Positions 1 to 50,900 of a DNA stretch of 64,000 nt are shown here, one piece after another. The first letter of the stretch is position 1. Each line of letters begins with the position of its first letter. The position numbers and the translations under genes were made by a program. Source of the DNA: Podarcis liolepis (lineage: Eukaryota); the NCBI GenBank assembly GCA_965112155.1, contig OZ218104.1; one strand, 5' to 3'. The notes under the pieces were generated by a model, which was not told the DNA's origin, searched no databases, and worked only from the letters and a program-made list of their open reading frames with translations.

Positions 1-1
1 T

Positions 2-2947
2 GAACCCTTTCTGAGCAGCAACTGCTAATAGTGCCCGTAGGGTCTCACTCCTTGAAGTGGGTGCATAGACTTCGGAATAATGTAACCCCTTGCTTTGCGT
101 AAAACCTCGAGCTACAAGCCTTGCTTTGTACTCTGGTTTCCCCATCGCTGTTGTCTTTATCCTGTACACCCACCTACAACTTACTGCCTTGGTACCTTCT
201 GGCAGTTTGGTGATGGAAAACACACCCAGTTCTTTCATAGAATTCAACTCCTTTTGCATGGCCTCACGCCACCTACTGGCCTCCTCCTGGGGTAATTGCT
301 CAACCTCCTCAAAACTTTCAGGTTCGCAATTTGCCAAACCAGCCCAAATACTAATAGCTTGGTACCTTTCAGGAGGTTTACCTTTGTTGGTACGCTGAGA
401 ACGCCTTAACAGTTCCTGCGATGTTCCTTCAGTTTCCCCCTCTGACCCAGAATCACTAGTCGTCACCTGTTTGTCACTAGTAGTTGTAGAACTTTCTGAT
501 TCTGACTTTACACGTCTCTCTTGCTGTACAGGTGAACTTTTAGAGCTAGAAGATTCTGACTTTACAGACTTGGGTGAACTAGGCGATTTCTCACCCTTGT
601 CCTCAGACTCAAATTCCTCAGTCTGTTCTGGAACTAATACCTGCCCTGGGGCCTGAGTTTCATTGCTACTGTTCACCACATCAAATAGTATGTCAGGATT
701 TCCATGAATTTTATTCCAACCATCCTGTTCACAAAATTCCGCACTTCTGCTGATTGTGACTTTCGTTTGATTTCCTTCTACATTCACAAATCTCCAACCT
801 TTTGTGTTTGCTTGATAACCACAGAAAAACATTTCTTTAGACCTAGGATCGCCTTTCCTATGTTGTGCCCTAGGCACCAGCACATAAGCACGACATCCAA
901 AAACTCTTAGATGATCAATTTTTGGTTTTTCCCCAAATAGCATGAAGTAAGGAGTGTTGCCTACTGTGCTATTGTACACTCTGTTAAAAGTATAATTCGC
1001 ATACAGTGCAGCCTCAGCCCAAAAACGCTGTGGAAGTCCAGAATCAAACAGCAAAGCAGCAATGGCTTCCTGTAATGTTCGAAATTTTCTTTTGGCAACT
1101 GCATTCTCCTGTGGTGAATAGGGATTGGTAAGTCTATGAACTATACCTTTCCTTTTTAACCACGTCTCCAGCGTGTAGTTCACAAATTCCCCACCACGAT
1201 CTGATTGTATTTTACGTACCCTGGTGTCAAATTTACATTCGACTTCTTCAATCCAATCCATCAGGATGGAAGCTGCTTGTGATTTTTCTTTCAGAAAGAA
1301 AACCCAACTAGCCCTTGAAAAGTCATCCACCAAAATTTGCATAAATCTCGCACCTCCAAGCGATTTGACTGGCATAGGGCCACACACGTCTGTGTGCACA
1401 AGTTCAAAGGGTTTCTTGCTTACTCTATCAGATCTAGGATAGTTACATGTCTTAACCTTAGCATGTTTACAAGCACAACAATCCAAAAAATTTGGACAGG
1501 GTTTAATGTTACACTCCTCAGCTAAATCTGGCATCTTGCTTACATACTTAAAGCATATATGAGCTAACCTTCTGTGTAGTAGATGTGCACAACCTGTATG
1601 AGGAGCCTTATTTACACACTTAGCTTGCGCTTCACCTGTTGAACATCTACCTGCTGCTAACTGCTCTTCATCCAAAACAAAAAGCCCATCCTCACAGGGA
1701 ATTTTAACTAGCTCCTTTCCCTGTTTCGAAATGGTGCACACATCATTTTCAAACTCAACCTTAAAACCACTTTTTACCAGGCATGACACACTCAAAAGTC
1801 CATTCTTCATTCCTGGAAGAACAAAAACAGGAAGGTTAGTTTGCAAACAGTTAACATAAATTGTGCCTTTAAGGTTCATTTCTCGTTTACTATTGTCTGC
1901 TATAGTCACAGTTTTTGCAACTGGCAATGTCTTGCAGTTCATCAAGTGGCCACTAGATGTCGCTGGAACTAAACTGTGACTTGCTCCACTGTCAATTATC
2001 CACTTCAAGGTTTGTTGGCTTCTTTTAGGACTCTGTTGTGCTGCCATTGCAGATAGTCCCTTATCAGCACCTGCTCCCCCTCTGGATCGTTGATTCTTGT
2101 AGTTCTCATGTCGTCTTCCCCTGTAGCTCCGGAAACTGGCCTTGGACTGTTGAAATTCCTGTTGCTTTTCTGGACACTTTGCTATCAAATGAAACCTGCT
2201 GCCACATCGAAAACATGACTTGCTGGCCATAGCAGACACTTGTGAGGCTTCCTTACAGCTCTGCCTGCTAGTTTCCCCACGCTGGGAATTATCTGAACAT
2301 CCAACCCTTGGGGTATTTGAATTATCAATACATTTTCGATGATGTTGATATTCTTGCTCACACAATCTACCAGTCACATAATTCATATTCAGCTGGTCCT
2401 CTGGCAAAACTTGAAAAGTTAGTACTAAGTTTTCAAACCCTGCATGCAGGCTGCTAAGCAGAGTATAAACTTTAATATTTTCAGGAAAATTCACACCTAA
2501 AGATGACAGTCGGTTGAAATACTCAGTCATCTGTGACGTGTGTTCAACCACACTATCCTCTGGCTTCAGTTTCAACTCATACAAAGCACGTATAATGTTC
2601 ACCTTCTCTCCGGGCGTGGCTCTATGGTGAATTCGCCTAAGAGCTTCCCAAATTTCAAATGCAGACCTTAAATTTTCCACATGCGGTAATTGGGAATCGT
2701 CTATCGATACCATCAACATGCATCTAGCTTTAGTGTCCATTTTATCATGCTCCCTGTTCTGAGCATGTGCAGCAGCCTGTTGCTCTGCTGTGGCATCTGC
2801 TGCAACAGCCACAAATGGCTTTCGCCTCTGGACATAGTCAGCCCACACTTCTTTGGCTTCCAACCAGACTTGAGCCCTCTTAGACCACTGCACGTAATTA
2901 GCAGAGTTCAACTTTGTAAAGGGAACCTGGAAATTTTCCACTGCCAT
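2..2947 (-). CDS. Copia gag-pol polyprotein, N-terminal 982 codons, no stop up to window edge
   Basis: Hand translation: MAVENFQVPFTKLNSANYVQW (gag N-term); CFRCGSRFHLIAKC zinc knuckle 2174-2215; WIIDSGASH protease (Asp 1991-1993); HRRLAH..CCAC, ELVHTDVCGP and IQSDRGGEF (integrase); WREAMQKEL, SCRWVYRIK and YKARLVARGFTQ (copia RT). Confidence 0.95.
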   Translation of the reverse strand, partial: MAVENFQVPFTKLNSANYVQWSKRAQVWLEAKEVWADYVQRRKPFVAVAADATAEQQAAAHAQNREHDKMDTKARCMLMVSIDDSQLPHVENLRSAFEIWEALRRIHHRATPGEKVNIIRALYELKLKPEDSVVEHTSQMTEYFNRLSSLGVNFPENIKVYTLLSSLHAGFENLVLTFQVLPEDQLNMNYVTGRLCEQEYQHHRKCIDNSNTPRVGCSDNSQRGETSRQSCKEASQVSAMASKSCFRCGSRFHLIAKCPEKQQEFQQSKASFRSYRGRRHENYKNQRSRGGAGADKGLSAMAAQQSPKRSQQTLKWIIDSGASHSLVPATSSGHLMNCKTLPVAKTVTIADNSKREMNLKGTIYVNCLQTNLPVFVLPGMKNGLLSVSCLVKSGFKVEFENDVCTISKQGKELVKIPCEDGLFVLDEEQLAAGRCSTGEAQAKCVNKAPHTGCAHLLHRRLAHICFKYVSKMPDLAEECNIKPCPNFLDCCACKHAKVKTCNYPRSDRVSKKPFELVHTDVCGPMPVKSLGGARFMQILVDDFSRASWVFFLKEKSQAASILMDWIEEVECKFDTRVRKIQSDRGGEFVNYTLETWLKRKGIVHRLTNPYSPQENAVAKRKFRTLQEAIAALLFDSGLPQRFWAEAALYANYTFNRVYNSTVGNTPYFMLFGEKPKIDHLRVFGCRAYVLVPRAQHRKGDPRSKEMFFCGYQANTKGWRFVNVEGNQTKVTISRSAEFCEQDGWNKIHGNPDILFDVVNSSNETQAPGQVLVPEQTEEFESEDKGEKSPSSPKSVKSESSSSKSSPVQQERRVKSESESSTTTSDKQVTTSDSGSEGETEGTSQELLRRSQRTNKGKPPERYQAISIWAGLANCEPESFEEVEQLPQEEASRWREAMQKELNSMKELGVFSITKLPEGTKAVSCRWVYRIKTTAMGKPEYKARLVARGFTQSKGLHYSEVYAPTSRSETLRALLAVAAQKGF

Positions 2948-3194
2948 TCTTGGGGTCTGCTGCTACTCCCTCTGTGTGCCCTTGCTTCTCTTTCCCCTTG
3001 GGATTTGTTTTACTCACTTTTCAGACGCCTCCAGCCTCCTCTGAAGCCTTTTAAACTTTCACTTACGCAGCTCTCTCAATTTTCTGCAGCCTCTCAGTTC
3101 CTTTAAGAGCTGGATTTATGACCAAGCCGGTCTTCTCTCATCCGAAAGCTGCTTTCACTCTCTCTGCACACAATACAGCTGTAGAAACGTAGAA

Positions 3195-3206
3195 GGATCC
3201 ATAACC
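3195..3206 (-). promoter_or_regulatory. Primer-binding site of the half-tRNAi-Met type (GGTTATGGATCC)
   Basis: Matches 10/12 of the Drosophila-copia-type PBS GGTTATGGGCCC, which is complementary to the tRNAi-Met anticodon arm; lies between LTR and gag leader. Confidence 0.75.
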
Positions 3207-3558
3207 TAAGAGAGTTTGTACTGGTCCAGTAAACACTTCCGCTGCGCCACCAGCAACAGCTCTCTTTGCAGAGTATTAATTAAGTCCAGTGCAGAGATTC
3301 TTGTTGCAGTACAAGCTTCAGAGACTCAGCAGCAAAGAAATAACGACACAGGGAAGCCTGTCTTTCCAAAGACAGGTTTATTGCAGAAAGATAACAGAAA
3401 CACCTCCGGAGCTTTCGGACATTTTTGCTTCACGCCCCAAAGACAGAGAAAACAAACACTCTTTATATACTGAGCAACTTAACAACTTAACGAGCTTGAC
3501 TACTTAAAGTCACATCACATTGCTAACTTGCCAGCGTCTTAGGTTTCACACCCTAACA
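3207..3558 (-). repeat. 5' LTR of the copia element (about 352 bp)
   Basis: Minus strand starts TGTTAGGG, has TATATAAA (3462-3469) and AATAAA (3377-3382), and ends directly before the PBS. The second LTR is outside the window, so the boundary is inferred. Confidence 0.8.
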
Positions 3559-3926
3559 GTGGAGCCCGGTAGGTATGTCACTGTCACTTGCTGAGCGGGA
3601 AGATGGCATGGAGGCTGCAGATGCATTGACAGGGGCACCAGATTGGCTCTGCCAGTGCGTTTTCACTGCACTGGTCTCCCTGCCACTTTTGCCCTCTCCT
3701 TCTTGGGAAGCAACTGGGACACAACTGGTGAGAAGTTATCATAATGGCACCGCCCCACCTGGTGAGCCACTTCTGCTCATTCCTCCATTGGGATGTGTAC
3801 TTGTACCACTATGATTTCCCATGCTTAAGTGAAGGGCTGGCTGAGGCCTCTTCTCCAGGATCTGAAGAACCAGGGTGGATATTGGATCTCCACCCTATAA
3901 CAGTTTGCTTGTTTCTTTGTTTGCAG

Positions 3927-4007
3927 TTTGACATTCAGCAGCTTCACATTTATTGCGACCCAGCCATGGCAATGCATGAGGGATGCTGTGAGATCTCTGA
4001 TAACGGG
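3927..4007 (+). CDS. COL16A1: COL16A1 exon (81 nt) FDIQQLHIYCDPAMAMHEGCCEISDNG, end of TSPN domain
   Basis: ttgcag acceptor, gtgagt donor, FACIT TSPN C-terminal motif. Confidence 0.95.
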
Positions 4008-7000
4008 GTGAGTAATACTGCAGATATGCAAAAGCTGTCACTTCTGTTTATGTGTGTGCTCCTGCATTTCCTCATGCTGAGGTTGCAGGACTGAGACATT
4101 TATCCACAAAAGCTGTCAGACAACTTTTCTAGAGTTGAAAGCACTGCTGTCTGTTTTGCAGGTTTTTATTATCTACAGTGGTGCATCAGGTTCCCCATTC
4201 AAAACCACAGGCAACAGCAGCAATTGATATAGATGTGATCTTGCATTGTAGATGCAATCTACTCAGTTACATAGCAACTTGCATGTAAAAACTGCTATGC
4301 TTTTTTTGGGTGGATCCGATAATATGTTGACACCTGCTGCCTGTTTGGGATAGTTATTTTTTATTTTTTGGGGGGTGATAGTTATTTGAAACAATGTCGG
4401 TGTTGTTTTTGCTTCAGAAAACCTTCACTTTCAGGTCTATGCAGTCATTCCCCTCTACTTACTTCTCAACAAGCTCTGAACTTGTTCAAATAGTACAGCC
4501 TCATTATATAATCCTGTTTGTTCTTTGGCAAGCAGGGCTGCTGTCAGCACCAACCAGCTGTTTGGGACTGAAAGCTAGCAACTTGGAAGTTGCCACCTGA
4601 TGACACACCTGTCAAAATGGCCCATGATGGGCGAGGGAAGTGAGGATCCAGCCCACCAGGCTGAAAAGTCTTCCCACCTGAGCCATAAACTTTGGTATCC
4701 CAGTTCCTGGTCTATCACTAACCCATATTTGTTCCCAATTAAATTTTCTGGGGCTCCCCAGACACAACCAATTTGGGCAGCAGTAAGAAAAAGAAAACTT
4801 GCAAGTAGACACAGTGCTAGGATGGGTGTAGCCCAGTTCCCTTATAGGAAATGAAAACTACCTCCTTCCTGATCATCAGAGTGATAATTTTGTAGTTTTA
4901 GGGGGGCATGCAGATCAGCCAATGGGTGGCTTGTCTACCTGTGTGTATGCAGGTGAGTGCATGAGGCAGTGTAGGGTGGCTTGCAGCCCCCAGAGATTGG
5001 CCAAGGGTAATATCAACCCTTGGACCAAAACACACTAGCCACCGCTGCTATAAGCCCCAGGCCATGCTGGTCCACGAAGAGCTAACTGCCTTGCTCACCA
5101 AAGTTATTTCAGTACTTTCCTGTTTCATCAGTGCTTTCCCGAAGCATCTAAAACTCGCCGGGATGTGGAAGTCATGCAGAGCAATGACCTGATAGAGATC
5201 AACCCTCAGACTGAAGGCAAGGTCTACACCCGCTGCTTCTGCTTGGAGGAGACCCAAAGCAAGCAGGTGAGGAACACCAACCAGCAAGAAAGAAAGAACT
5301 AGCATAGCCCAGAGCATGGGCAGCCAGCATGGTGCCTTCCAGACATTTGGAACTACAACTCCCATCTGCCTCAGCCAGCATGGCCATTGGTCAAGGAGGA
5401 TGGGAGCTGGAGTCCACAACATGTGGAGTGTACCACTCCAATTACTCCTGGTGTAGAGCTATGAATCAGGAAGCCCCTAGCTCAAATCTTGTTCCTGTTG
5501 TGAAGTCAGGTCATGGCTATAAGCAAGCCTCTCAGTCTCCCATCTGGGGGTTGATGATGCTGTCCTTCCCTGGAAAATTGTAATGGTTATGACAAGCTAA
5601 AGTATGTGGAGCATTTGTAAGCATTACATAAGACAAAGTGTTATTGATTTGAAATCCTCTGGAGAATTCCATTTACTGGAACTGTACAGCCCAAACTGTG
5701 GAAATATGGGGTAGTTGTGGTTCATGGGTTTTTGTTGCATGTGTACAGACAGCACAGATGAAGATATAGTTTTCTGTTTCACCCTGCCTTTGTTGCTAAT
5801 GGCACTGTTTCCATTCCACTGCATTTCGTCTTCTGCATAAACTGTTATTCTTCTCACTGTCCACTGTGACAATATTGTGTTAATTATGTAAATTCCATCT
5901 TTTCATTATGTTATCCATTCATTTCAATGTAAAGAAAACATGATGCAAATGAGAGAAAATGCAATCGATTTCATATCATTTGCAGTTTGAAAGTAACAAC
6001 AGCAGTGAATAGCAATAGCATTTGCTGGATTGATTTCCATTCTGGACATGGAATGAACAAGTGAACATTGGCAATTTCTAGTCCTGTTTCTCTCTAGCAG
6101 ACAGCTAGGTTGATACGATGTGATTAAATAGGATGGATTTGTGTGGAAAGAATTTTATTGTGGAAGAAAAGCTGTGAGATCATTACTGAGCAACCATTGC
6201 AATGTTAGCCTGCGTAAACAACACTGAAAACTTCCATTGTGTGTGCTTAGCCATGTTCACCAATATCTTGCTGCCACCCCCAGCATCTGCCACCTGAGGC
6301 AGCTGGCTCACTCTGCCTAATGGTAATGTTATGTCCAATCACATTGTGTTGGACATAGTACCATGGCATTGTTCCATTTACTGTGTGATCCCTGATTGGA
6401 TGGGATCACCCATGTAACCATTATCAGAAGCAGCAGTCAGGATAAATAATGGCACCCAACAGTTTTGAGAAAAGATAAGTATTTGGGAGGGGAAATTACC
6501 CATCAAAATAAGTACTTTTGATCCACAAATCGGAAAGTTGTAGAGACTCAGTGCAGTTTTAATCCTCTGCTGAGATAGATTTAATGGTCCAACTGATGGA
6601 AAACTAATTTGCCTGTTCCCACCACCACTGTAGTATGGAATAGAGAGAGCATTGCTGGAATTAAACACCAGTCATCCGTTCAACATTTGCTGGGAATATG
6701 TTTGCTACCAATTTAGGGATTTTATTTTTCACTGTCACATCCTACTGAGAAGAAATACACATCAGAGAAGGGACTGGGAAGGGGGGAGCAAGAGGTTGCA
6801 ATCCAAACCATCTGAGACTACTGCCAGCCAGTTGTGCGCTGACATGATGGATAGAATATGGAAATATTTACATCCCTGCTCACCAAAGATGGTTCTTAAG
6901 GGGGTCTGCAACATTTTTTAATACAAAAACATGATCTAAAAGGAAACATCAGTACAAAAGCAAAACACAACCTTCGGCAGATTAAAAACAGCAGCAGAAT

Positions 7001-13000: not shown

Positions 13001-16000
13001 TTGATCATTTGTGTCACTGCCCATCATACTGACAGTCACAAAAATGCATAAACATTACAGAGTGATTGATAGTTAAACTTGTAGATGGATGAAAGAAGTC
13101 CTTGCCCATGGGGTGTACGTCAATGAAGGAATTATTCTAGTAAACCCGCACATGTTTGCAAACAAATAAAGCAACACTGCTGAAGAAAAACATTCTCTCC
13201 TGACCCTTGATGGACCCTTGCGCCACAGCCAGCATCACCATAAACATATGTGAGGAAAAAGCAGGGATGCCTTTCTTAAGGTGGTGCCCACCACATATTG
13301 ATTTTTTTAATGTACTTAAATTCAAAGCAAGTTTCTTTTTTAAAATTAAAAACTGCTGTCCAATTCATGGTGGCATCTTTTTAATTGATCAAAATGTTTT
13401 AAATGTCAGCTCTCTAACCTGGTGCCCTCCAGATGTTTTGCCTTGGTGCCTAGGGTAGATGAGACTTGCCATCCAAAACATCTGGAAGGCACCAAGTTGT
13501 AGAAGGCTGCAATAACTAATTGCTTGACTGCTTGTCAATTAGTTAATACAGCCTTCTCAACTCGCTTACCTGAGGAAAAGCCCCCACTGAACACAGCAGG
13601 ATGTACTTCTGAATAAACATGCACAGAACTGCATTATAATTGTTGCAGCCTTTATTAGAAAGCATCTTCCTTTCCAGTTTTCTAATTGTTTTGTTCTTTT
13701 TGCAGTGTCCCCCATGCTCACAGAAGTCACAGCTTTCAAATGTAAGTCAACGGGCTGGTGTTAATATCACATTGATTTTCTAATGAGCCCTTGGATAAGG
13801 CAGGCTGATGGATGTCAGTTGCTGATGGTTCAAGAAGCAACATGGGCTCTCTTTAACTTCCAGGAGTGGGATCCATGCATTTGTGGATTTGGAAAAAAAT
13901 AATAATCTCCATAGGTCCAGTGGGCAGGAACTCGGGTCCAAGAGTAACTGTTCCTGGAAAACTGTTAATTAGGCAGGAGATGAGCTGAGCTGGTGGTCAA
14001 GAAGGCAAGGTCATGCTCAGAACAAGAAAGTACTCTGGGTTTGGCATCTCTGGTTGCCAACTGGATATTCCACACCCACCAACATTCCTCAGATGTAAAT
14101 AGGGACATTTCTTACTCTTCTCCAACTGAAGCTCCTTGATCCTGCTGAGTATTTCCTATGAGAAGAAGGGTAAGGCAAGACCAGCCTACCTCTTAGGGTT
14201 GTTGTAACCCCACAATAACCCCCCTCTCTTTTTAAAAAAGACCCACAATCTTGCTTGCTTCAAGAGTTGGCCAAACACTGTTGGTACTCTTGGGAACATT
14301 GTCCCACCTACATCCCTTTCTTTCTGGTGTTAGAGCAACATCATGACTGCTTTGCTGCCCCAGCTGCAAATGTAGTTGAATGTGCAGTTCGCCAAATTAG
14401 AGAAGCAACTTCTAGTTGTGAGCAATGTTGAAATCACCTGACACCCCCCCCCACACACAGAGAGAGACACAGGGCCTCTAATGGGACAAGGCTGTATTCT
14501 TAGATCCTTCCTCATTTGGCAGCCGAACTGCTGACTCAAAAGGCTTCTCAGCAGCTGCAGAATTGTAACCTCAACAGGGACCATTGATTCATTCATTGAT
14601 TCATTCATCCCAGTGGCGGGTTCCTTCCCCGGAACCTGGATTTCCATCTTCATTCTCCCCTGCCCCCCAAGTCCTTTTACCTGTCCCAGTTGGCTGAATA
14701 TCCAACTTTGCCCGCATGGTTTCTAAAAGGAGCTGTCCCTGTGATCCCACCCCCCATCCTTCCACCACTTTCCCCTGTTCCTTCTGGCTTGCATCCACTG
14801 GAACATCTGGATCACTGAAGAAATCCGTGATGGCTTCCAGATGTCAGCAAGGGTTCCCATGGCAACAACTTTGGCACATGGAACCACAGAGGATGAAAGG
14901 AAGAGGTGGGGAGGAGAGGCTGCATCAATGCTACTCTTTGCACTTTTCCCTTTCCTTGCTTACTTTGGTTACTCTTCTGCAGGGCTAGATGGTGGGACTG
15001 CCAAGCAGTTGCACAGGAATTTGTGGGAGGGGAAGCCACAGATCTGAGTCTTGGTGGCTTTGCCAGAGTCCCTTTTAGCCATTACTCCCCAGATGTAATG
15101 GGGACCCTGTGGCTTGACCCTCAACATGAACTGAGGGACAGGGGCAGATTGGTGTGTGAGAGAAAAGGACAATAAGAAGCTTCCTTATTCCAGTCAAATC
15201 ATTGGCCCAGCTAGGTCCATATTGCCCACAATGACTGCCTCTTTCTCAGCCCTATCTGGAGATATTGGGGGTTGAACATGGGACCTCCTGCTCTACCACT
15301 GAACAATTGTCCTCCCTTAAAAAGCCCACTTTATTCCATGCCAGACCATTTGTCCATCTAACTCAGGATTGTCTCCAGTGACAGGCAGTGCCTCTCTTGG
15401 TAGAAGATAAAAGACCTACCCAGCCCAGAAATGCCCAAGATGAGCAAGGTGTGGTGTTTTGGTCCTTCTGGCTTGCCGTACAAAGCTCAAGCCCTGGGCT
15501 CTTAGTTTCCATCTGCATTACAAGTGGCAGCTGGCTACATGACTTTCCCCTCCATAACCGTATTGTATTAGAGTTATTGTTGTTTGTGCATCCTCTTTGT
15601 GGCCTCTCCTTTGCGATACTTCTCAGCAGGGGACTTCTGTATACAGAAAATATGCTCTGCTGCCACTGAGAGCTGCCCTTTCCTTGACTGCAGGCTCTGA
15701 TCTCTACCTCCAGACCTTTCTTGCTCCTAGTCTGAAGGGAGCCAGCATCTGACATATTTAAGAGCTTCTTACAAAGGCCACCAGTTCACTCTTGATGAAA
15801 TGCAAGGTGCTGAATCGTCTCAGCAGCCCTGGGCCACAACTGCTCCCTCCCAACTTGTGCACAACAATATCTCTGAACTTGTTAAGCACCCTATCTCCAT
15901 GACTGAGCCACTGGCTCCTGCTTGTAACCTTGGAGAGCCCCTGTCAGTCAGTGTAAGCAGTACTGAGCTAGATGGTCTGAGGCAGCAGAAGGCAGCATCT

Positions 16001-19000
16001 TATGCTGCTTTATAACCAGTCTGTTGGTTAGCCTGAAAGCTCTAGCAGAGACCTGCACAACCTAAGATGCTTGGTGAGCTGAATGCAGACACTATACCAG
16101 ACTTGTATTGTGGTGGAGAGGGGGGTTATATTGCAAGGTTCTGCCCACCCTCACATTAGGGTTAGGATGAAGTGAAATGCACTCTGGGCATGCTCAGGGG
16201 CTGCCTTTTCACATTGGTGACCTAAAAATGAGCTAGGGCTTGTCTTCCCCCTCTCAGATTAAGCTCAAGCCACTCTGAAAATGCAGGCTTTTGGGTGAGA
16301 TTCTCTGTTCTCTGAAAGATGCTTAAAGCACTCGGTCTTATGTGACTTCCAGTCATAAGAATAAGTTTGCCTCCTTATGAACCTTCCTCCTGGCAAAGGA
16401 GGCCCTACGGAGCCAATGGATACAGCAGCTGCAGAATAGTAACTTTTGACAGGGGCTTTTCATTCATCTCAGTGGCAGCCAATTTTCCACTGGTATGTTT
16501 TAAACTGAAAGTCAAAGCTCAGGGTCTATCTTTACTTCAGTGTGTGAATGTGTGTGTGGTGGAGGGAGGGAGATGCTGTATGATTGCATGGATGGAACAT
16601 ATGGATGCCAGAACCATCTGCAGTGGGTCTTGAAGTGGAGATGTGCAAGGAGTTTTGAACCTGGATGCCATCACATTGCCCTGACTAGAAGAGTGAACAG
16701 TAATGAAACTAGCCAGTCCTGATTTCCTCACTTAGACCCACATCTTTTAGCATCTCCTTCTCTTTGCCACAGATTACCTCCTTGCATATCCACTTTGCCT
16801 CTAATCTATGTAGCTATGCAGACATCTTGCCCCTAACTTTAGCAAGCAGATGGAGCCCCATGGGCCTGACCCAGCCACCAAAGCCTGTGACTAATGCTGG
16901 CCTCCATCTTCTCCATCCGTTTCTGGATCCTTTTTCAGGTTGTTCCAGCAGTGTTTATAAGAGGCCCTCCCTCCCTCTCTCAATAAGACACCTACATTTT
17001 CCATCCTTGCAGCTTGACTAACTTTTCCATTTGTCTTTTCCTTGGGGGAAGGAGGAAAGAGTTCGCTCTATCTTCTTTATGGCAGCCTCTTAAGTTTGAG
17101 GCCTGTTATGTTACCTTTTAATCTTCTTTTCTCTAGGCTCACGTTACACAGCCCCTGATAGTTTTAACGTTTTGTCGGCCTGGATACTTGCTTTTCAGTC
17201 TGTTCCCGTTTGACCTGATTCCTCCTTTTACTTACTCTTGGCATGCAGAATGATCACCGAGGCGTCTAGCAGATGCATTAATTTTGTTTTTATCTCTTCA
17301 GGCCACGCTGGGTCCACCGGGCTTAAAGGTAAGTCTTTCACCTAAGCAGAATCCCAAATGGTGGCGGCTGCTTCAGGCTCCACATTCCTAATCTTATGCA
17401 GTTAACATTCCTAGAAGAATTGGCTGTCTGGCTTGCCATCATTAGTAGGGCTAAAAAGGACTGCTGATCACTCTGCATTTCCTTTTAAAGCCTTCTTCTT
17501 ATTAGATTAAATAAACAAACAGACTACAACATAATAAGCATGTAAATTACCTTATCCAGAACGTTCCCCAAATTGTAGTGCATATTTGTGTATTGATACT
17601 AACAGGCAATAATGCAGGCCATGTGCTCAGACGTCAACCACTCCTTTCCTCATTGTTACTAGGGATTTGTTATTTTCTCTTACTGCATAATTATTGTCAT
17701 CGCTTGCAGTGGTTCTCAACCTGTGGGTCCCCAGATGTTGTTGGACTACAACTCCCATCATCCCCGAGCTCTGGCATTGCTAGATAGGGGTGATGGGAGT
17801 TGTAGTTCAACAACATCTGGGGACCCACAGGTTGAGAAAGCCTGGGAAGTTTTTGAATATTAAGCAGTTTATAAATGTTTATATTGTTAACTGCAGATAC
17901 TGCACACAATCCAACTTCTGTCATTTGCGAATATTTTTATTTCAGGATGTTTGTAATTATTTTAAGGTAAGGGTGGCTAGAGTGTTCCTACTGGCGCACA
18001 TTATATATTTGAAGCACATTGATTCCCCCCAAAGAATCCTGGGATTTGTAGTTTGAGAACCCTGGGAACTGTAGCCAGCACCCTCACAGAGATACAAAGC
18101 TCAGCACCCTTAGCAAACTAAAATCCTTGGGATTCTTTGAGAGGTCATGTGTTTTAAATGGATAGACTTGTAAAGAAGGCAAACAACCGCTGATGTTAGA
18201 AAAGCTGCTAAACCTGCTATTCATTTTCAGACTAGAGACCTCAAGCCAAGATTGTGGCTGATGCTTATGCACACCTTAATCAACAGACTGGGGGAGAAAT
18301 TCCTTCCAATGCCACCCACCCATGCTGTTGCTGTCATCCTGTCTTTCTCTTTCTCTCTCTCTTTCTCATCCCCTCTCTATCTAAATCCCACCCACCTTTC
18401 ACTCCCTGCTCCTAACTGGAGAGAGAGTATGCGAAGGGCAAGGATGGCATTTACGTCTGAAAGAGATTAATAAACTAGCATATGTGTTTGCATCCAGACA
18501 TCAAGTGATGTCATGTTTTTGTATTGTGCGCTGCTCACATCCACAGCATGTGGGCTTTTGTGTTTGATTTGTGCGCTCCGGAAGTGTCTTCTGCCTAGAG
18601 CTTCTGTTTTCTTTTCAATGGCATGACAACAGTACTTTTCTCAGGGAGTTCCTTCTCTCTTTTCGTGCAGGGTGGGAAAGGCGAACGTGGACCACCAGGC
18701 ATCTATGGATCCAAAGGGGAGAAAGGCGATCGTGTAAGTACAGCATGGTTCTCCTCGCTCTGTCACACTTGGAACTTTGCTGACATGCTTTGGGGAGCAA
18801 CACTTTTACCATGTGGGAGAATTGGCATATCCAAATCCCAATGCCAAACCTTTGTTTGACATCATCACCATCATCATCATCATCATCATTGTTATGTACT
18901 TTGTGGTTTTGTTCTGTATTTTAAAGTATTTTTAATCTGTGAACTGCCCTGGGAACTTCAGATGAAGGGTGATATACAAATTTAATCCAGGCTGGCCCAC

Positions 19001-29900: not shown

Positions 29901-32900
29901 TTCCTTCTTTCTCTGCAGGGGAAACCCGGGGTCCCAGGCCTGAAAGGAGACAAGGTGAGTCGAAGGAAGGCAGGATCAAGGCAAAGCCTGTGCATTCTCT
30001 GGTTTCAGAGAAGGGCATGAGGCTCCTACCCCACTCCCCACCAAGCTCCATTATCACCACATCTAATAATGAACCTAACCTGCCCTTCCCATAGGGTCCC
30101 AGGTCAGGTTATAGCAATATACTATACAGTTATAACAACAGATAAAATAGTTACAATTACATATAAAAAAGCAAAACTTTTCCAACCAGAGGAGGATAAA
30201 TAAACAGCAAAAAAGGTGTAATGCTTAAGCAGTAAAAGGCCAGGGTAAAGAGGCTTATCTTCAGGAATATGGCAAAAGCTGTACAGTGAAGATGCAACAG
30301 GCACCATTATGGGGAAGGAGTTCCACAGTTATATCCCTTTAATTTGCTCTTCCCTCTATTCCATCCCCCAAACCTCCCAAAAACTACTTGCCTGAACAAG
30401 AGGATCTAACTATGTTTTGTCTCAGGAATAATTCATCTTAATGCATTTTGTTTAAATAATTTTCTTTCTATTTTGTGGAAGGAAGCAATGGAGACCTTTT
30501 CCCTTTGGCCCTGTTGCCTTTGTTTTGTCTTCCTTTAGTTGAAATCTTCTTCACAGCATCTTGAATGTCTCTCAACAGGGGGACCCATGTGAAGTCTGTC
30601 CCACTACCTCTGATGGGAACAATGCAGTCAGCATCCCTGGGAAACCAGGGCCCAAAGGGGAGCCTGGACCTCCAGGGAAACCGGGCAAATCGGTGAGTCC
30701 CAGGTCACTGGGTGAAGGCTTTATCCCTTGAGGGTGTTACAGACAAGGAGATTCCTGCATTGGACTAAATGACCCTGGGAGGTCCCTTCCAACTCAACAG
30801 TTCTATGATTCTAAGAAGCAAAGGTGTTTGGTTGGTGGGGCAATTGCTGAGTTATTGGACCCTGTAGTTCTAAGCATTTCCTTTGGTCTCCTTCCTCCCT
30901 CCCCCCACGCCTTTCTTTTTCAGGACAAGCCTGGCCCTCCAGGACTCAAAGGCAGCAGGGTAGGTGTCAGATTCACTTTCTGTGAGATTAAGAGCAGAGC
31001 TGTGAGATTAAGAGATTAAGAGCAGAGGGGAAGACCCAAGTCAGAGCACATGCTTTGCCTGTAGAAAGCCTTGGGTCGAATCCTTTGCATCTCTGGTTTT
31101 AAAAGCATCAGGTGACACAAAAGACCATCTCCCTCATATCCCAGACAGCCACTGCCAGACCAGCACGGGGCTTTGGCCCAATTACAGGTAGCTTCCTATG
31201 TCCGTCAAGATGGCCTGTAACCAACAAGAACGGGTATCCCATGACCCAGAAGCTTAGATGTTGTGATGGAATAATACCACCTACAGCCTTTGGGCATGAA
31301 TCTTTCCTTGGCAGGTGTGGCTGTTTTCCCTGCAGTTCCCTCCTCTAGACAGAGTGAACTGGATGATGGCACACAGCCTGGATGCCCCACCTGGCATCCT
31401 TCAGGTCAGTGTTCTTCAACCAGATGCTGTTGACTTGCACCTGCCATTGTTCCCAGACAGCTTAGCCAATGGCCAGGGATGGTGGAGGCTGTAGACCAAC
31501 AACATCTGGAGACACAAGGTTGAAGGACACTGTCTCACTTCACTGGTTCAAGAACTGTGGCAGATTTCTGACACTAGGTGAATTTGTTACCTATTAAAAT
31601 GCATATTCATTCTTTTATATATAAAAAAAACACTCTTCAAATTAAAGCTGAAATGGCACAAAGCAGACCTACAAATTAGTGCATGGGAAGTTGACATGAT
31701 CCAGGATACACCGATTCCATGGAGGAATCAAGTGAGGGCCAGTTGTTGTGGCCCCTTGTGGTCTGTTGAGACTGTGAGCTGTGTGGATCCAGGAGCACTT
31801 TTGAACAGAGGTTGGGTGGGCATCTGCCAGGGATTCTTTAGCTGTGGTTCCTGCATTGCAGGGGGCTGGAGCAGATGACCCTTGGGGCTCCTTCCAACTC
31901 TACAATTCTGTGATTCTGTAACATGTTCCTGGTTTGTCTAAACTGAAGCAACCATTGATGGGGTACAGCAGGTGCATCTCTTGCTGATGCCCTCTCAGCA
32001 CCACCAACACCACCCAGGCTCAGCTGCCTCACCCAGTTGCTGGTCGCATGAACGTTTCCATTGCCTTCTGATTCTTTCCTCTCCCTTTTCTTTTTATCAT
32101 TCTTCAGGGGGACCCTGGGATCAATGGAATTAAAGGGGAGAAGGTAGGTGGCCATTTCCTTTTTATATGATCTCTAACCCCTGTTTTTGTTTTGGTTCAG
32201 TAGGGGTCACACTCTGTAGTGGGGGGGGGGGAGTTGTGCACATAAGCCCCACCACAAATGTCCTCATGTGTGCTGTCTCCCACCTCCTGCCTCGCTTTGT
32301 CCCCAACCTTACCCATGATGTACAGTGGTGCCTCGCAAGACGAAAATAATCCGTTCCGCGAGTCTCTTCATCTAGCGGTCTTTTCGTCTTGCGAAGCAAC
32401 CCTATTAGCGGATTAGCAGATTGGCGCTATTAGCAGTTTAGCGGTTTAGCGGCTATTAAAGGCTTAGCGGCTTAGAAAAAGGGGGCGGAGCGAAAAAAAT
32501 CGCAAGACTCGCAAGACGTTTTTGTCTTGCAAAGCAAGCCCATAGGGAAATTCGTCTTGCGAAGCGCATCGAAAAACGGAAAACCCTTTCGTCTAGCGGG
32601 TTTTTCATCTTGCGAGGCATTCGTCTTGTGGGGCACCACTGTACAAGGAAAATTTGCACAGGGATTCTACTTGGTGTTCAATTGAATTAGGATTATGTAA
32701 TTGTGGATTCTGATAAAGCACAGTCCTTGATCATGAGATGCATTCGAGTGAATGTGAATGGAATTCCTAGGCAGGCCTTCTCCTTTTAATCCTGGGCTTG
32801 TCCAAAGTTCTCTGTAGCCTTTGGGGAGTGCTTGCACACATCTCTGCTTTAGTTGTGATTAGTGGCAAGGGCTTAGACTGAAAGCAATCTTCAACTAACA

Positions 32901-35900
32901 GCATCTTTTGCATGCCTGCAGATTCTCATTTTAGCTTGCAAACTGCAGAACTCCTTAGGGAAATACTGCTTCATTTGTAAAAAAAAAACAAACAAACCAA
33001 AAACAGTGAGCATTTTGAGTTGGGTAAATTTTGCATTCTGAACAAGGTGATGATGAAGTTTTGCTGATGAAAAGGAACAGGTTTTACACAACTCCTCCAT
33101 CTCATTGCCTTTAGCCAGTTGTTCCTCACTGCAAGTGACTAGGCATGTGGTTATTTACAAGACTGCTGGATACCTTTGTGCAAATTATTTCAGGCACCCA
33201 CACCCACAAACAATACTTACTGCAAAGTCAATTTTGTAATCCATGTAAACAAGGAGACCCGCGCATTTTAGGCTTACTGAAATCTACCCAACTATGTCTG
33301 TCCCAAACCAGCAGTTTTCCCACGGTGCAAGCGGTTGGGGGGGGGGGCAGGCTTGTACCATATCCTGCAATCTGTATCACCATTTGCATTGCACTGGTAT
33401 GAAATGAGCTATTCCTCGCTAATACCAAGCATTGTGCTTCTTCTTCTTTAAGGGAGATCAGTGTCAGTCATGCAGCCCTGCAGCCCAGCACCTTCAGAAA
33501 GCACCCAAAGGAGAACCAGGACCACCAGGGATTGGCCTGCCTGGCCTTCCCGTAAGTATAGAGCCATTGTGCCTCTTGCCTTTAGTGTAGGGCACTGCAA
33601 GGATTTATGGGAAGAACAAGGGTGGAATGAATAGCAGTGCTGAAGTGAGAATGTGAAATAACACAAGGGTTTCTAGTCCTCATGATCATAGAAAAGCACA
33701 TGCAATCCCCATGGCAGTTTCTGTGAACAGGCAAGTCTACACAGTACAAGCCCATTTAATCCTCTTCACTTCAGCCTGCGGAACTCTAGTTCTGAGAAGC
33801 ATTCTTGATGATATCACTGAACTACAGTCCTCAGGGTTTGATGGGATGTCATGGCAGTTTCAAAGCTGTTTGGATTGGTTGTGCGAATAGAATGTTCCAA
33901 ATGAGAGCAGGTCTGATCTTAAGGTTAAAACCTGGTTAAAACCACATCCAGAACTTTTCCTGGTTCTGCCAACTCCTTCACTGAAATGATTCTTCTTACT
34001 TTTCTTTTATTTGCTTTCAGGGCAAAGATGGCCTTCCAGGGCTGTCTGGACTCAAAGGAGAAAAGGTAAGAGCAAATTTTCAGGAGACAGTCAGAGGGCT
34101 GGTTCCGGAATACCTTGCTTTATCTCTGTTCCACTGCAAGTGTAATTAGCCAGAACTTGAGGGTGAATCCAGTGATTTTTATCACAGGGTAATAATACCT
34201 CTGTAANNNNNNNNNNNNNNNNNNNNNNNNNNNNNNNNNNNNNNNNNNNNNNNNNNNNNNNNNNNNNNNNNNNNNNNNNNNNNNNNNNNNNNNNNNNNNN
34301 NNNNNNNNNNNNNNNNNNNNNNNNNNNNNNNNNNCCCTTTCTCCCGGGCAGACATTTGTCTGACAATACGAGGAATATAATTAATATTCTAGAAACATTA
34401 CAAGTGAATATCAATACTAAAGCAGTCTTGATATTTGTGGATGCAGAGAAAGCCTTTGACAATATTTCTTGGAGTTTTATGAAGAATAATCTACAGGGGA
34501 TGGGGGTAGGACAAGGTTTTGAAAATGGTATAGGTGCAATTTATTCAGAACAAAAGGCAAAATTAATTGTGAACAATGTGATGACAGAAGAGTTTAAGAT
34601 TGAAAAAGGGACACGACAAGGTTGCCCAATTTCTCCATTGCTTTTTATATCGGTCCTCGAGGTTTTGTTAAACATGATTAGAAAGGACCAAGAGGTTAAA
34701 GGTATACAAGTGGGAGCTAAACAGTACAAACTGAAAGCATTTGCTGATGATTTAGTGTTGACTGTACAGGAGCCAGAACCTAGTACTAAAGGGGTATTGG
34801 AACTGATTCAAGAATTTGGACAGGTTGCAGGTTTCAAGTTGAATAAGATGAAAACCAAGGTTTTAGAGAAAAATTTAACTATGAATGAGAGAGAGAAGTT
34901 TCAGGAGGAGACAGGATTAACATTGGTTAAAAAAGTGAAATACTTAGGGGTTAACATGACTGCTAAAAATGTGAATTTATTTAAGGATAATTATGAAAAA
35001 TGTTGGATTGAAGTGAAAAAGGATTTAGAAGTATGGACAAATTTGAAGTTATAATTGTTAGGCCGAATTGCTGTGATAAAAATGAATGTGCTGCCAAGGA
35101 TGTTATTTTTGTTCCAAACATTGCAAATTTTGGATAAGACGGATTGTTTCAAGAAGTGGCACAAGGATATTTCTAGATTTGTCTGGCAGGGCAAGAAGCC
35201 TCGAATAAAATTCAAGATACTAACTGATGCTAAAGAAAGAGGTGGATTTGCCCTGCCGGATCTTAAACTTTATTATGAATCAGCTGCTTTTTGCTGGCTG
35301 AGAGAATGGCTGCTTCTTGAAAACACTGAAGTGTTGGATTTAGAAGGTTTTAATAATGTATTTAGTTGGCATGCATATTTGTGGTACGATAAGGTAAAAG
35401 TACATAAAGCGTTTAAAAATCATATTGTTAGAAAAGCATTGTTTAATGTTTGGATAAGATATAAGGATTTGTTAGAAAAGAAAACCCCAAGATGGTTGTC
35501 ACCAATGGAAGCGAAGGCACAGAAAAAAACTCAATATGGAGGCCAAATGGCCGAAATATTGGGAAATTCTGGTGCAAGATGGAGATAGAATAAAATTGCA
35601 GAGCTTTGAAAAATTGAAGAACAAAGTGCGAGATTGGCTCCATTATTATCAAATAATGGAGGCATACAAATTGGACAAAAAAGTTGGTTTCCAGGTGGAA
35701 AAATCAAAATTGGAAATAGAATTGTTAGATCCAAAACCCAAGAATTTGTCAAGAATGTATAACTTGCTGTTGAAATGGAACACTCAGGATGAGATGGTGA
35801 AATCAGCTATGAGATGATGTTGGACATAACATAATGATGGCTGACTGGGAACGGTTATGGACCACAGGTATGAAATTTACGGCATGTAAATGCCCTAAGA

Positions 35901-38900
35901 GAAAATTTAATGAAAATGATTTATAGGTGGTACATGACACCAGTTAAGCTTGAAAAAATTTACCATTTGCCCAATAATAAATGTTGGAAATGTAATGAGA
36001 CTGAAGGTACATTCTTTCACCTTTGGTGGACGTGCCCAAGGATTAAGACATTCTGGGAGATGATTTATAATGAAATGAAAAAGGTATTTAAATATACCTT
36101 CCTTAAGAAACCAGAGGCCTTTTTCCTGGGCATGGTCGGCCAATTGGTGCTAAAGAAGGATAGAACTTTTTTTATATATGCAACAACAGCAGCAAGAATA
36201 CTCATCGCGAAGTATTGGAAGACACAAGATTTACCCACCAGGGAAGAATGGCAGATGAAGTTGATGGACTACATGGAATTGGCGCAAATGACTGGCAGAA
36301 TCCGAGACCAGGGAGAAGAGTCGGTGGAAGAAGACTGGAAAAAGTTCAAAGACTATTTACAGAAATATTGCAAAATTAATGAATGCTAGAAGAATGTTGG
36401 AATGAAGTGATATGGCTTTAGTAGAAAGGTTATAAGGAATTAAGTACAAATAGATTAATAGAGTATTAAAAGAAAAATAAGGTTGAAATGTGTTAAGATA
36501 ATTATAGGATAGGAAACAGGGGAAGATGGAAAGGAATTGCTGAAATAATTAATAGAAGTGGAATACAAAAAGGGAGGTGTGAGGAGGTCGTGGAAATATG
36601 TGAAAGAAAGATAAGACATTGAAATTTATTTATTTTTTCTTTTCTTTGTTGATGTGTTTTTAAATTGTTTTTGTTTTGTCTTGTTAGTTTAATGTTTTAG
36701 TGTAAGGTAGTGTCTTTGTATTGTAATGTATTGTTTTTTCTTTTGGGGGGGTAGTGTTTAAATTGTTGTAAAAGCAATAAATATTATTAAAAACAAAACA
36801 AAACAAAACAAGATCCCCCTTATGTCAGATTCATCTGAGCAGCAGTTTTCTTGTTTCAAGATGGTAGATCATTTGAGCATCATTGCAGCCATTTTCTGTC
36901 TTCAGCAACTCACCAGTTCCTCTTTGTACCTAGGGAGATACTGGAGCTGTAGGACCTGCAGGCAAAGCTGTGAGTATGAGAAAGTTCTGCAAGTTTAGAG
37001 TGCGTTCGTTGCCCTCTGGGAGCTGGCTTTTGTGATCTGAACAGCGTTGGAAGATATGAAAACAAGAACAAAGTCAGATAATAAAGGGATTTGGGGGAGT
37101 TAATAAGTCACTGTCACTCAGGGGGGAAAACAGGTAAGTAACAAACACAAAAACAGTAATACAGAGTTGCAGATCTGCAGGATGAAATAACAGCAAACCA
37201 GGGTACCAAACATCCAGTTCTTTAATATGAAATATGAAACACTGTGCAATTTTCTTTGTCTTTTACTTTGCTTGCTAGACAGTCTGGTGAATTGTCCCCT
37301 AGCATAGTTGCTAGACCTCAAGATTTTTATTGCATCAAGCTCAAAAGCTTCAGTTCATGCTTGAAGAGAAATGGTGTACTGCTCTTCAGTACATTCTGAT
37401 GCTTCCAAATTAACTCTAATGAATGGCAATGCCATGATGTATCTCTACTGCAAGGAATTCTCCGAATCTAGGAAAGGACCCCACCTCCTTCTCCTCAACC
37501 CTTCCTCTCATTCTGTGCTTAAAGCTCAGCAGTTTCTCACTCCTCCTGTAATCCTAGGGAGCCCGAGGGACCAAAGGGGACACTGGAGATTCAGGAGTCA
37601 AAGGCGAAAAGGTGAGCAAATTGGTATCAAAGCATGGAAGTGGTTGTGTAACTTGTTCAGATAAGTGAGCCTTTCATCTTGCTCACAATCTGTGGCCCTC
37701 TCCTCTCTTATCCATGTCCCCTGTTTTGCCATCTTGTATCACAATTCATTTTCTCTCCCCTGTAGGGAGAACCTTGTACTGAGTGCCCTGCCTCTCTGGA
37801 AGGTCGGGAGACCATGGTTTCCATTCCAGGGCCTCCAGGAGAGAAGGGTGAGCCAGGGCTTCCTGGTGCTGGACTTCCTGGAAAACCAGTAAGTGACCCT
37901 TGGCGTGGACCTCCTTTGGAGAGGAGCAAGGGGTGTGGCAATAGAGCTAGAGGGAAGGTGGTCCCATAGGCGAAAGAAAAATTTGCATTGCAGGGGGTTG
38001 GACTAGATGACTCTTCCAGCTCTACAATTCTGTGATTCCTGGGGCAGATAGAAAGGTTTTGTGAGTCTATGGCATAGTACGTTCCTCCTAAATTAGACAA
38101 ACTGGTGCAGAAGCTCAGTGTAGAAGATAAACAGGGCTGAGAATTGGGAACCTATTTCTAGTGGGCTTCTCTTATTAGGCTGCCTGGCAGACTTGATTTG
38201 TTGGAAGGACTGTCTTTGTGGCAGGATCCAAGGGGCCAGTGAAGTTTAAGCAGAAAAGCTTTTTCTCTTATATTGCTTGCTGTACTTTTTCAGGGAAAAC
38301 CCGGGGAATCTGGAATGAAAGGTCAGAAGGTAAGAGAAGTCCGCCTGCTGGAGTGCTTCTTTGCGAGATTACATAACCCAAGGGGGTTGGTGGCCAGAGC
38401 TGGCTTTGGAAAGGGGTGAGGAGGTCTGGCTTTTTCACACTCCTCGAGACAAAACCAGAGGCACAGGAAATGGATCTCTAGGGAGCAAATATATTCTCAT
38501 TATATTTACACAGTATAATTGGAAAAGCAAGCTACAAACAAAGTACAGTGATCTATAAGAAGTTGCAAAAGACCAGAAGGAAACACGAAAATCAAATATG
38601 CATGCGGTGCAATAGGAGGAATGTCAACACCTGCAGTCCAACACGGGTGTAAAACTGCTAAAAATCTCATCAGTGCAAATGAATCCCTTCTGTGCCAAAT
38701 TGGGCCAGTTCCCGAAAGGGCCCATAGCAGTTCAGTTCCTTGCTTCTACACATAATAAGGCTTTGGGTACTGGGGCTGGAAATACCCCCGTCTCAATACT
38801 TGTAGAGCCATTTGCCAATCAGCGTAGAGCAGTGGTGAGGAATCTTCAGCCTCTGGGCCTAATTAGGACCACTAGGTCTCCCCATTTGGCCTACAGTGTC

Positions 38901-47900: not shown

Positions 47901-50900
47901 TTATTCAATAGGAGCCACTGTGCGCAGCCTTCAAAGATCTGTTCCGTGGTCCTTGGTGTTCTCAAGTTGTTCCGATTGAATTTAGCATGTCACTCAGCTT
48001 GTTTATCAGTGCAGCAATGCTGTTATCATGTCGGGTGGAAGGTAAGGGTGGGCTCCAACTCCCACAGGGCTCCAACACGCTGCGGACGTCTGCCCGGCGG
48101 GCGGGGCACTCTGCTTCAGGGCGCCCTGCGCGCCGGGCGGCAGGCTGTTATCCGCAGCATGGGGAGCCCTGCGGGGAACTCCACAGGGCTCCAACATGCT
48201 GCGGATGTCTGCCCGGTGCGAGGGGCGCTCTGTTCAGGGTGTCGCTCGTGCTGGGCGGCAGGCTGCTATCCGCAGCATAGGGAGCCCTGCGGGAACTCCC
48301 GCAGGGTTGCCTAGGCTGCGGATGTGTTCCTGAAGCCTGGAGAGCGAGAGCCTGCATTCGCCCCATAGGACGCACCCAGATTTCCCCTTCATTTTTGGAG
48401 GGGAAAAAGTGTGTCCTATAGGGCGAAAAATATGGTAGTTAGCTCAGAGCTCAGAGGTTCCAGACAGTGGGACGTCAGAAGGCATGAAAACGAGTGAAAG
48501 AAGCAGGCCAAAGAGAGCTGATCAAAGGAACTTACAGGTGTGCTTCTTTGCATATCTGAGAAGCAAATGGGACCATGAAATCACTCTGCACATGTGTGTG
48601 CATGTGTGCTATTGCCAGCAGCACGCTTCTCCAAATATCTGACTCTTCTTTCTCTTCCTTTTTTTTCCTCTAGGGTGAAAAGGGAGCCAGAGGAGAGAAG
48701 GTGGGTCAGCCTCCTTCTCCATCCCAAATTTTGCAACACTTAAGTTCCTTTTGGTGTCTTTCCACACCGTCAGCATCTTATACAACAAACACCTGCTGTT
48801 TTGTCATGTGCTGCACACAATTCTCCCAGTTCTTATCTTTCTGGGGATTCAATGCACTGGCTGAGAGAAGCACAGTGCACCTTTGAGTAATCCAACATGT
48901 GGAGGAGCCAGAAACACCCTGTCACTCTGCCACTCCTTGTTCATGTGGACCAGAAGTGTTACTCTGGGAATAACAACCCCTGACTCTTGATTAAGTGTCC
49001 CATTCCAGAGCCCCGAAGAACATAAGAAGAGTCCTGCTGGTTGAAACCAAAGGCTTATCTATTCTTCTCCCACAATGGCGAAGCAGATGCCTCTGGGAAG
49101 CCCACAAGCCATACATGAGCTGGGATAGCTCAGCCAGTACAGCATGGGATTCTTACTCTCAGGGTTGTGGGTTTGAGCCCTACATTGGGCAAAATATTCC
49201 TGCATTGCAGGGGGTTGGACTAGATGACTCTTGTGGTCCCTTCCAACTCTACAAATTCTATGATTCCATTGGCACAGTAGCCTTCTCCAGTAGGAAAAGA
49301 TCCCTGTGCTCCCACTCCTTGGTCCCCAGGTGTCTCTCCCTCCTTACCCTCCTCACCTTTATCTTCTCAGGGAGATTCTGGTGAGTGCAGCTGCCAGCCC
49401 GGCCCTCGCGTGGACTCAAGCAACATTGGTCTTCCGGTAAGCATCACTACATGCTCCTGCTGCCCCCAAGGCCTTGGGGATTCGCTGCCAGGCTGGATGA
49501 TGGTTCAAGCCACCTGTGCCCCCCCATTCTCCGCTCAACGCCTTTGCTGCTCCGGAGGCTGGAACGCCCATGTCCTGCTTGGCCTTTGCTAAACGCTCTC
49601 CCCTTTTGGACCCGCAGGGTGCCCCAGGACTGTGGATCGGGACTTCCTGGCAGCCTCAGCCGGGCCCTCAGGTGTGTGGGTGTGTGTATGTGCATGCTTG
49701 CTCCTCTGTGCGTAGCGACCTTGGCTCCTTTCTCCCCATCGCCCGCCCCGTAGCTCTCTTAACCTCTTCCTCTCTCTTTCTTTGTGGTGTTAACAGGGAC
49801 CGCCAGGTGTTCCAGGCCCTCCAGGCCCACCAGGAGCTCCTGGGAGGCAGGTAAGTGGTAGGAGACCCATATACCCCAGCATCCTGCAGACAAGAACAGG
49901 TATGCATTGACAGTGCCAGCTCCTGTATTCTTTGTGGTGGGGGAGTGGATAAGGCACAGCATTAGTGGACTCAGTTAACCTGGAAGAGGCAGGGCTTCCA
50001 AGCCCAGAATTCACTCCCACTCCCCCTGACTTCCTTGGTTGTGCAGTGCACAGGAAGAGCAGCAGCTCTGCTTAGATGGGGACCCAGTCCTGGTGCTGTG
50101 TGCTGTGTGCTGTGCTAAACAAATGAGTTGTGTTGTGGCTGTGAGCCAGTGTGCTGCCCTCAGCAGTTCTCATCGCACCCTCATGGAAATGACCTGGAAT
50201 GCTAAAAAGCTTTGGGAAGGTGGAGAAGTCCAGCAAGAGTCCCAATGCCATGACCCTTTTCTTGCTGGGCCATCCCTGTGTTGGTTGATCAAGAGCAGGA
50301 GGCAGAAATTGCTCTCCAAAAGGAACACTATACCTGTTTGTTCTATATGTTGCCCTGGCAAAGGGGAGCCCTCGGTACCACTTGGATGGAGAACCAGTTC
50401 ACAACATTTCCTTTCCTGCCCTTTCTCCCCTCCCAGAACACAGATATCAGTGTGGGGTGATGAGTCTAGTTCCTCCACCCCAACTAAACATAACAGCAGA
50501 GGCTTGTTTTGACTTAAGACACATTGATTGGTTACAGAACAGAGAACTGTGGCAATGTTCCACATGGCACATGTACAACTGATGTATTCCCGTCTTATAG
50601 ACCTTTTCATTCTAAAGGGCATCTAGATCTTAGGCATGCCTCCCCATCCCCTCTACACAATTGTTGGCTGCAAGAACAAAAGGTGTGCCTTCTAGAGGTG
50701 GGGAGAATACCATGCAAGCGTTATGAGTCCTGATCTAAGTTGCAGAAAATCACACCCACCCATGATACTTCTCCTAAGCCTTCACACCCCCAGCCCTTAT
50801 CTTTTTCTTATCTTTCTTTAAGTCTTGTTTCATCTTCTTGGATGCTCACCAGTTTTCTATGGGTTCCCCATTTATCTCTGAGATTCATCTTCTTGACTGC

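Follow-up and report, generated by a model that had tools for sequence, protein, structure and literature searches.

A young Ty1/copia gag-pol element, very probably of the Mtanga clade, lies antisense in an intron of squamate COL16A1 and has begun to decay

Birds and mammals are without copia retrotransposons according to the accessible portion of PMC4350176, and on this point the original prediction for the locus described here agrees with the literature. Its further statement, that copia is patchy in vertebrates with some elements reported from squamates, implies a rarity that was overstated for squamates: the available text of PMC11889832 reports copia in 23 of 24 squamate genomes, all of it belonging to the Mtanga clade. 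In that survey squamates carry 66% of the 49,920 copia copies counted in 263 metazoan genomes, and 750 of the 750 classified amniote copia elements in its supplement are Mtanga. The same available text describes Mtanga as the only copia clade in Lepidosauria, with neighbours in nematodes and insects, and leaves open an ancient horizontal origin of the sarcopterygian Mtanga elements. An active family is described from the corn snake, where copia causes two colour alleles through intronic insertion; the family comprises 85 near-identical copies and the two insertions differ by one base (PMC11948899, accessible sections). Half-tRNA priming, in which the anticodon arm of the tRNA is used, has been described for Drosophila copia and Ty5 (PMC1181622 and PMC10886601, as far as their text is available), and the accessible part of PMC10886601 also reports that priming of fungal Helenus elements mostly involves the anticodon loop of the initiator tRNA and that Copia mobilises them.

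We analyzed an element at one edge of a stretch of 64,000 nt, which we call the window. Translation of the minus strand from position 2947 to position 2 gives 982 residues and zero stops, as had been claimed from inspection of the letters, and from the base composition the chance of an open frame of this length is about 1e-29. The gag-pol ORF (2..2947, minus strand) runs off the window edge and has the status ‘3open’ in the ORF listing, which fits the run-off that had been proposed to explain its absence from the ORF track. Gag, a CCHC knuckle, protease, integrase and the start of reverse transcriptase (RT) lie in this single frame with their motifs at the claimed places: the cysteines and the histidine of the knuckle are residues 245/248/253/258, the protease motif DSGA is found at residue 319, the HHCC of the integrase at residues 458/463/490/493 and aspartates of the integrase core at residues 520 and 583. 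Pfam agrees with this layout. Retrotran_gag_2 (PF14223, E=2e-27) covers residues 28-203, rve covers 511-612 and SH3_retrovirus 671-744, Pol_BBD (316-395) and gag_pre-integrs (421-497) score under the curated cut-off, and RVT_2 (PF07727, E=3e-16) matches residues 909-981, which correspond to the first 75 of 244 model positions only. The order protease-integrase-RT, with the integrase ahead of RT in pol, is the copia arrangement, and together with the copia-specific Pfam models it places the element in the Ty1/copia superfamily, the identity originally given. Judged by the length of a family mate, P0003, 982 of approximately 1,386 expected codons are visible; by extrapolation from this mate, the part past base 1 should comprise the remaining RT/RNase H sequence of about 404 codons, followed by PPT and 3' LTR. 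The RT catalytic motif and RNase H are found in P0003, which is 97% identical to the window copy. Between integrase and RT there is a Ser/Glu-rich low-complexity linker (270-700, minus strand; residues 750-870) whose conservation is poor, even versus the Podarcis element described below.

The element sits antisense in an intron of squamate COL16A1, so that the reptile collagen intron named in the original prediction can now be narrowed to one gene. Downstream of the element, the first exon of the host gene (3927..4007, plus strand) encodes part of the N-terminal non-collagenous region and is 86-90% identical to four named squamate proteins; its acceptor is 368 nt away from the LTR edge. The following exon (5132..5266, plus strand) shows 98% identity to Lerista and Phrynosoma, 91% to Crotalus, 87% to Gekko and 71% to a tortoise, and further Gly-X-Y exons extend to 63,779. 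All 26 collagen matches were left out of the copia analyses, and the 5 named ones that we used for the exon mapping are among them. In all, at least 25 candidate COL16A1 exons were observed between 3927 and 63779 on the plus strand, many of them Gly-X-Y exons of 36, 45 or 54 nt. The N-terminal 130-240 residues of four named squamate collagen alpha-1(XVI) proteins have no match of at least 70% in the window, and the upstream exons of the gene are presumably situated on the far side of the element. Within the visible 3,558 nt (1-3558), the host strand has no AATAAA or ATTAAA and no strong acceptor (defined as at least 16 of 18 pyrimidines, a criterion that leaves weaker sites aside). That the element is antisense, and that its visible 3.56 kb offers the host strand neither polyadenylation nor strong acceptor signals, suggests a near-neutral insertion as far as COL16A1 is concerned.

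The window also holds several other repeats. The intron that follows the exon with its end at 34065 contains, in COL16A1 orientation, a LINE (34335-36810, plus strand) that we take to be L1-type; it is 5'-truncated or hidden in part by a 128-N assembly gap immediately ahead of it (34207-34334), and it shows an RVT_1 match (E=3e-25), an ORF2 split into several frames and an AATAAA with an (AAAAC)n tail near 36776-36810. MITE-like inverted repeats were observed at 17713-17838, 13411-13503, 32319-32645 and 57256-57445. The first of these has 52-nt arms of 96% complementarity and is one member of a family represented several times in the window, and the ends of the one at 32319-32645 are presumably Mariner-like. 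Five short repeats (30781-30811, 31848-31916, 37980-38038, 49197-49254 and 59457-59524) share one type of 3' tail, assumed by us to be CR1-like, and a GC-rich tandem repeat at 48057-48306 consists of 2.1 copies of a unit of about 119 nt with 86% match.

For the copia element itself, a stop-free frame does not mean an intact one, because residue 619 is a lysine. This codon (1091..1093, minus strand) corresponds to the last catalytic residue of the DD35E triad of the integrase, as judged by alignment and by solved structures: it stands 35 residues past the second catalytic aspartate and aligns with the conserved position of the solved integrases 7z0h_W and 2x78_A. A catalytic carboxylate is kept at this position in 232 of the 233 aligned integrases, the window copy being the sole deviant, and the lysine is probably private to this copy, as judged on two family mates and the wider alignment. 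The DD35E triad of the window copy is thus not intact. By established integrase enzymology the loss of the third carboxylate should abolish strand transfer, and the copy can probably not integrate unaided. The case is a reminder that a catalytic lesion can hide in a stop-free frame.

Next, we compared the frame with its family mates, P0002 (98% identical, representing a cluster of 14) and P0003 (97%, a cluster of 2). P0002 ends at 773 aa and P0003 is without part of Gag, so both mates are incomplete as polyproteins and an intact autonomous copy was not among the sequences seen. The window copy differs from P0002 at 13 places, all of them single-base changes and 11 of them transitions. Five of the 13 are of the CpG-decay type on the window side, where a share of 15% would be expected for missense transitions (P=0.017), a modest excess from this single comparison; against P0003 only 3 of 28 differences are of this type. 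Six residues are private against both mates. These observations bear on the possibility that the insertion is fully competent, very recent and polymorphic, and that lysine 619 and the other private differences arose by mistakes in base calling or in one single cycle of reverse transcription. A frame that stays free of stops and frameshifts over 2,946 nt and mates at 97-98% identity would suit such a copy, active polymorphic copia is known in corn snakes (PMC11948899, available part), and the assembly is gapped, carrying the run of 128 N, so that lysine 619 could be an assembly error. However, the six private residues speak against it, as does the bias toward transitions and CpG, which is expected of methylated genomic DNA, and we regard a fully competent copy as unlikely.

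The divergence amounts to 0.3-0.7% of about 1,830 nonsynonymous sites. Squamate genomes evolve at 1-3e-9 substitutions per site per year, and from these two values we infer an age bound of roughly one to a few million years, which would be lower if some difference predates the insertion. The open frame is compatible with this age: an unselected frame stays open with a probability of 0.18-0.47 at 0.5% decay, and an open frame becomes improbable past about 1-2% neutral decay. The copy is therefore young but decaying. Of the very recent insertion originally proposed, youth is upheld by the 97-98% identical mates and the open frame, while ‘very recent’ and the intactness it implied were overstated in view of lysine 619 and the CpG-type decay. 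The same data can be set against the idea of a domesticated copia ORF held open by host selection. The frame is long and open and an integrase catalytic residue has been lost, as is common in domesticated genes; but an LTR and a candidate primer site are still attached, near-identical mates exist, the pattern of changes looks neutral, and youth by itself accounts for the open frame at the survival values given above. We consider domestication extremely improbable. As a young copy, the element may serve as an insertion marker.

To place the family among other copia elements we used trees of 70 of 222 integrase domains and 61 of 192 RT/RH domains, selected as top scorers plus named taxa. The nearest named relative outside its own family is a Podarcis lilfordi element, P0004, annotated as ‘TNT 1-94-related Pol polyprotein’, with 42% identity over residues 1-760, 55% in the integrase and 64% in RT/RH, and no named non-squamate match exceeds about 43%. 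The integrase tree groups the family with the Podarcis element and P0005 (SH-aLRT 95), and in the RT/RH tree, for which P0003 served as proxy, the family is sister to the Podarcis element (support 100/99). In both trees P0151 branches as sister to the lizard group (99; 100/100), with which it shares 44-45% identity; knowledge of its host would help to root the squamate lineage. Membership in the Mtanga clade is very probable, an assignment drawn from the literature and the neighbours in the trees; three peptide motifs of the element gave no matches in the text supplements of PMC11889832.

A horizontal origin had also been suggested for the element. For a recent transfer into the lizard lineage from an arthropod, a nematode or another non-squamate, one can point to the RT/RH tree, in which the lizard group nests (99/97) among elements including those of Trichuris, Araneus, Cordylochernes and Anopheles, and to the ancient horizontal origin of sarcopterygian Mtanga that PMC11889832, in its accessible text, does not exclude. 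Both trees nevertheless join the family to a lizard element, which is its nearest named relative. Among the best 150 matches from 1.84 billion cluster representatives, identity drops from 98% within the own family to 54% and then to at most 46%, although a donor could be unsampled, as repeats are mostly masked in annotated proteomes. Moreover, the element is 55-64% identical to its lizard relative while host exons among squamates are 86-98% identical. An element far more diverged than the host exons is the opposite of the signature of recent transfer, and a recent transfer from any sampled lineage is thus unsupported. We judge such a transfer to be very unlikely and reject it, together with domestication, on the points given for each.

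The 5' LTR (3207..3558, minus strand) starts with TG at 3558. As neither a second LTR copy nor a solo LTR or second copy of the element is present in the 64-kb window, its inner end has two candidates, 3207 (TA), directly before a candidate primer site, and 3302 (CA). An end at 3302 supplies the CA, but no primer site follows, and we take 3207 as the more probable end. LTRs with TG...TA termini have precedent as non-canonical ends. A motif scan revealed a TATA-like box at the end of U3 (3463..3469) and an AATAAA polyadenylation signal in the R region (3377..3382), both on the minus strand. The candidate primer-binding site (3195..3206, minus strand) can pair with the anticodon arm of initiator tRNA-Met over 8 consecutive positions and, when one G-U is counted, at 11 of 12; this pairing was compared by eye with the tRNA as printed in the accessible part of PMC8216282. 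The 8-nt core is found 4 times in the window when the two strands are taken together, and the call of the primer site therefore rests on its position. With an anticodon-arm primer site, the LTR would end in TA and not in CA. The position and pairing of the site point to half-tRNA priming by initiator tRNA-Met in this family. Literature matches for the primer motif in copia came from Allium and Rheum papers only, and our literature search returned no description of the primer site of Mtanga elements. The flank adjoining the LTR (3559..3563) reads GTGGA, as reported originally, and is a candidate 5-bp target-site duplication.

Taken together, we are confident that this is a young squamate Ty1/copia copy, very probably Mtanga, which lies antisense in a COL16A1 intron and has begun to decay, and that its family uses the standard copia cycle. 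In this cycle Pol II would transcribe a single gag-pol mRNA from the TATA box of the LTR, and the polyprotein would be processed by the protease that it contains. Minus-strand DNA would start from the 5' half of initiator tRNA-Met, held in place through the anticodon arm, and the DD35E integrase of the family would insert the DNA with a 5-bp duplication. The window copy could still supply RNA, Gag and protease, whereas new insertions would need the integrase of another copy.

Near the inner end of the LTR we recognized a sense copy of nt 7-24 of initiator tRNA-Met (3233..3250, minus strand), comprising the D-arm and an A-box-like Pol III motif, with 17 of 18 nt identical by eye. It lies 26 nt upstream of the primer site. 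Its 15-nt core has a single occurrence in the window, where 0.02 would be expected. For this tRNA taken alone, such a match has a chance probability of about 1e-5; when all tRNAs on both strands are allowed for, the value rises to about 2e-3, which is the fairer figure because the match was spotted by eye. The primer-site stretch also resembles tRNA nt 43-55 in sense (by eye), which partly reflects the internal complementarity of the tRNA itself. We could not find a tRNA here by other means: an Rfam scan of 2900-3700 at E<=10 returned 6 weak unrelated matches and no tRNA, and ARAGORN predicted 0 tRNA genes in the window. Besides the A-box-like motif at 3249, no B-box is present in LTR or leader, even at one mismatch, which leaves a Pol III promoter without support; the A-box 11-mer by itself is common, with 82 matches in 128 kb. 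RNA folding of 3445-3170 indicated no unusual structure (z=0.23), and the D-arm hairpin alone reaches only -1.8 kcal/mol.

It is conceivable, if doubtful, that the D-arm copy, which was seen in one element copy only, is a selected and conserved functional cis-element of half-tRNA priming in U5. Once about 26 nt had been synthesized, the minus-strand strong-stop DNA would begin to include the complement of nt 7-24 of the attached half-tRNA, and by folding back on it could stabilise or remodel the primer complex or aid strand transfer. A literature search, with most subscription journals outside its coverage, found no report of a D-arm copy in coding copia. If true, this would be a new cis-element of half-tRNA priming in a protein-coding vertebrate copia, and there would be two priming modes among squamate copia. 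Conservation of the D-arm copy in the family and its relatives would provide a testable handle on half-tRNA primer use and would link coding copia to the tRNA-bearing Helenus elements.

The closest precedent that we found for the D-arm copy is provided by the Helenus TRIMs, which, as far as the text of PMC10886601 was available, resemble the present element in having tRNA-like sequence inside the LTR. They are, however, short and non-coding, whereas the window element exceeds 3.5 kb and codes for gag-pol, and they are conserved around Pol III promoter motifs, whereas here there is an 18-nt D-arm match and no B-box. Identity with Helenus or TRIMp3 was ruled out by the coding length, the missing B-box and the negative Rfam and ARAGORN searches. 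Hemivirus-type copia elements (Drosophila copia, 1731, Ty5 and Osser; PMC1181622 and PMC10886601, accessible parts) likewise have a primer site that pairs with the anticodon arm of initiator tRNA-Met, but the window site has a mismatch and a wobble among its 12 pairs and no CA directly before it; the likeness noted here concerns the primer site. The corn-snake Copia insertions in OCA2 and CLCN2 (PMC4657000 and PMC11948899, available portions) are also young squamate copia copies in introns, and the domain order of the OCA2 copy shows that it, too, lies antisense to its gene. Unlike the window element, in whose visible part no such signals were observed, they are exonised and cause a phenotype. 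The corn-snake primer site fits the 3' end of the initiator tRNA (by eye, from the PMC4657000 supplement as far as available), whereas that of the window element fits the anticodon arm; in the same material we found neither D-arm nor anticodon-site motifs at the corn-snake LTR, and one partial match inside pol. The closest resemblance is to the Mtanga Copia of Lepidosauria such as P0004, which shares the squamate host, the single gag-pol frame and the domain order and is the sister group of the present element in the integrase and RT/RH trees. It is a separate family at 42%, 55% and 64% identity for the three regions given above, and the integrase lesion belongs to the window copy. The element is one more young copy of a copia clade already expanded in lizards and snakes, and it is ordinary apart from its D-arm copy.
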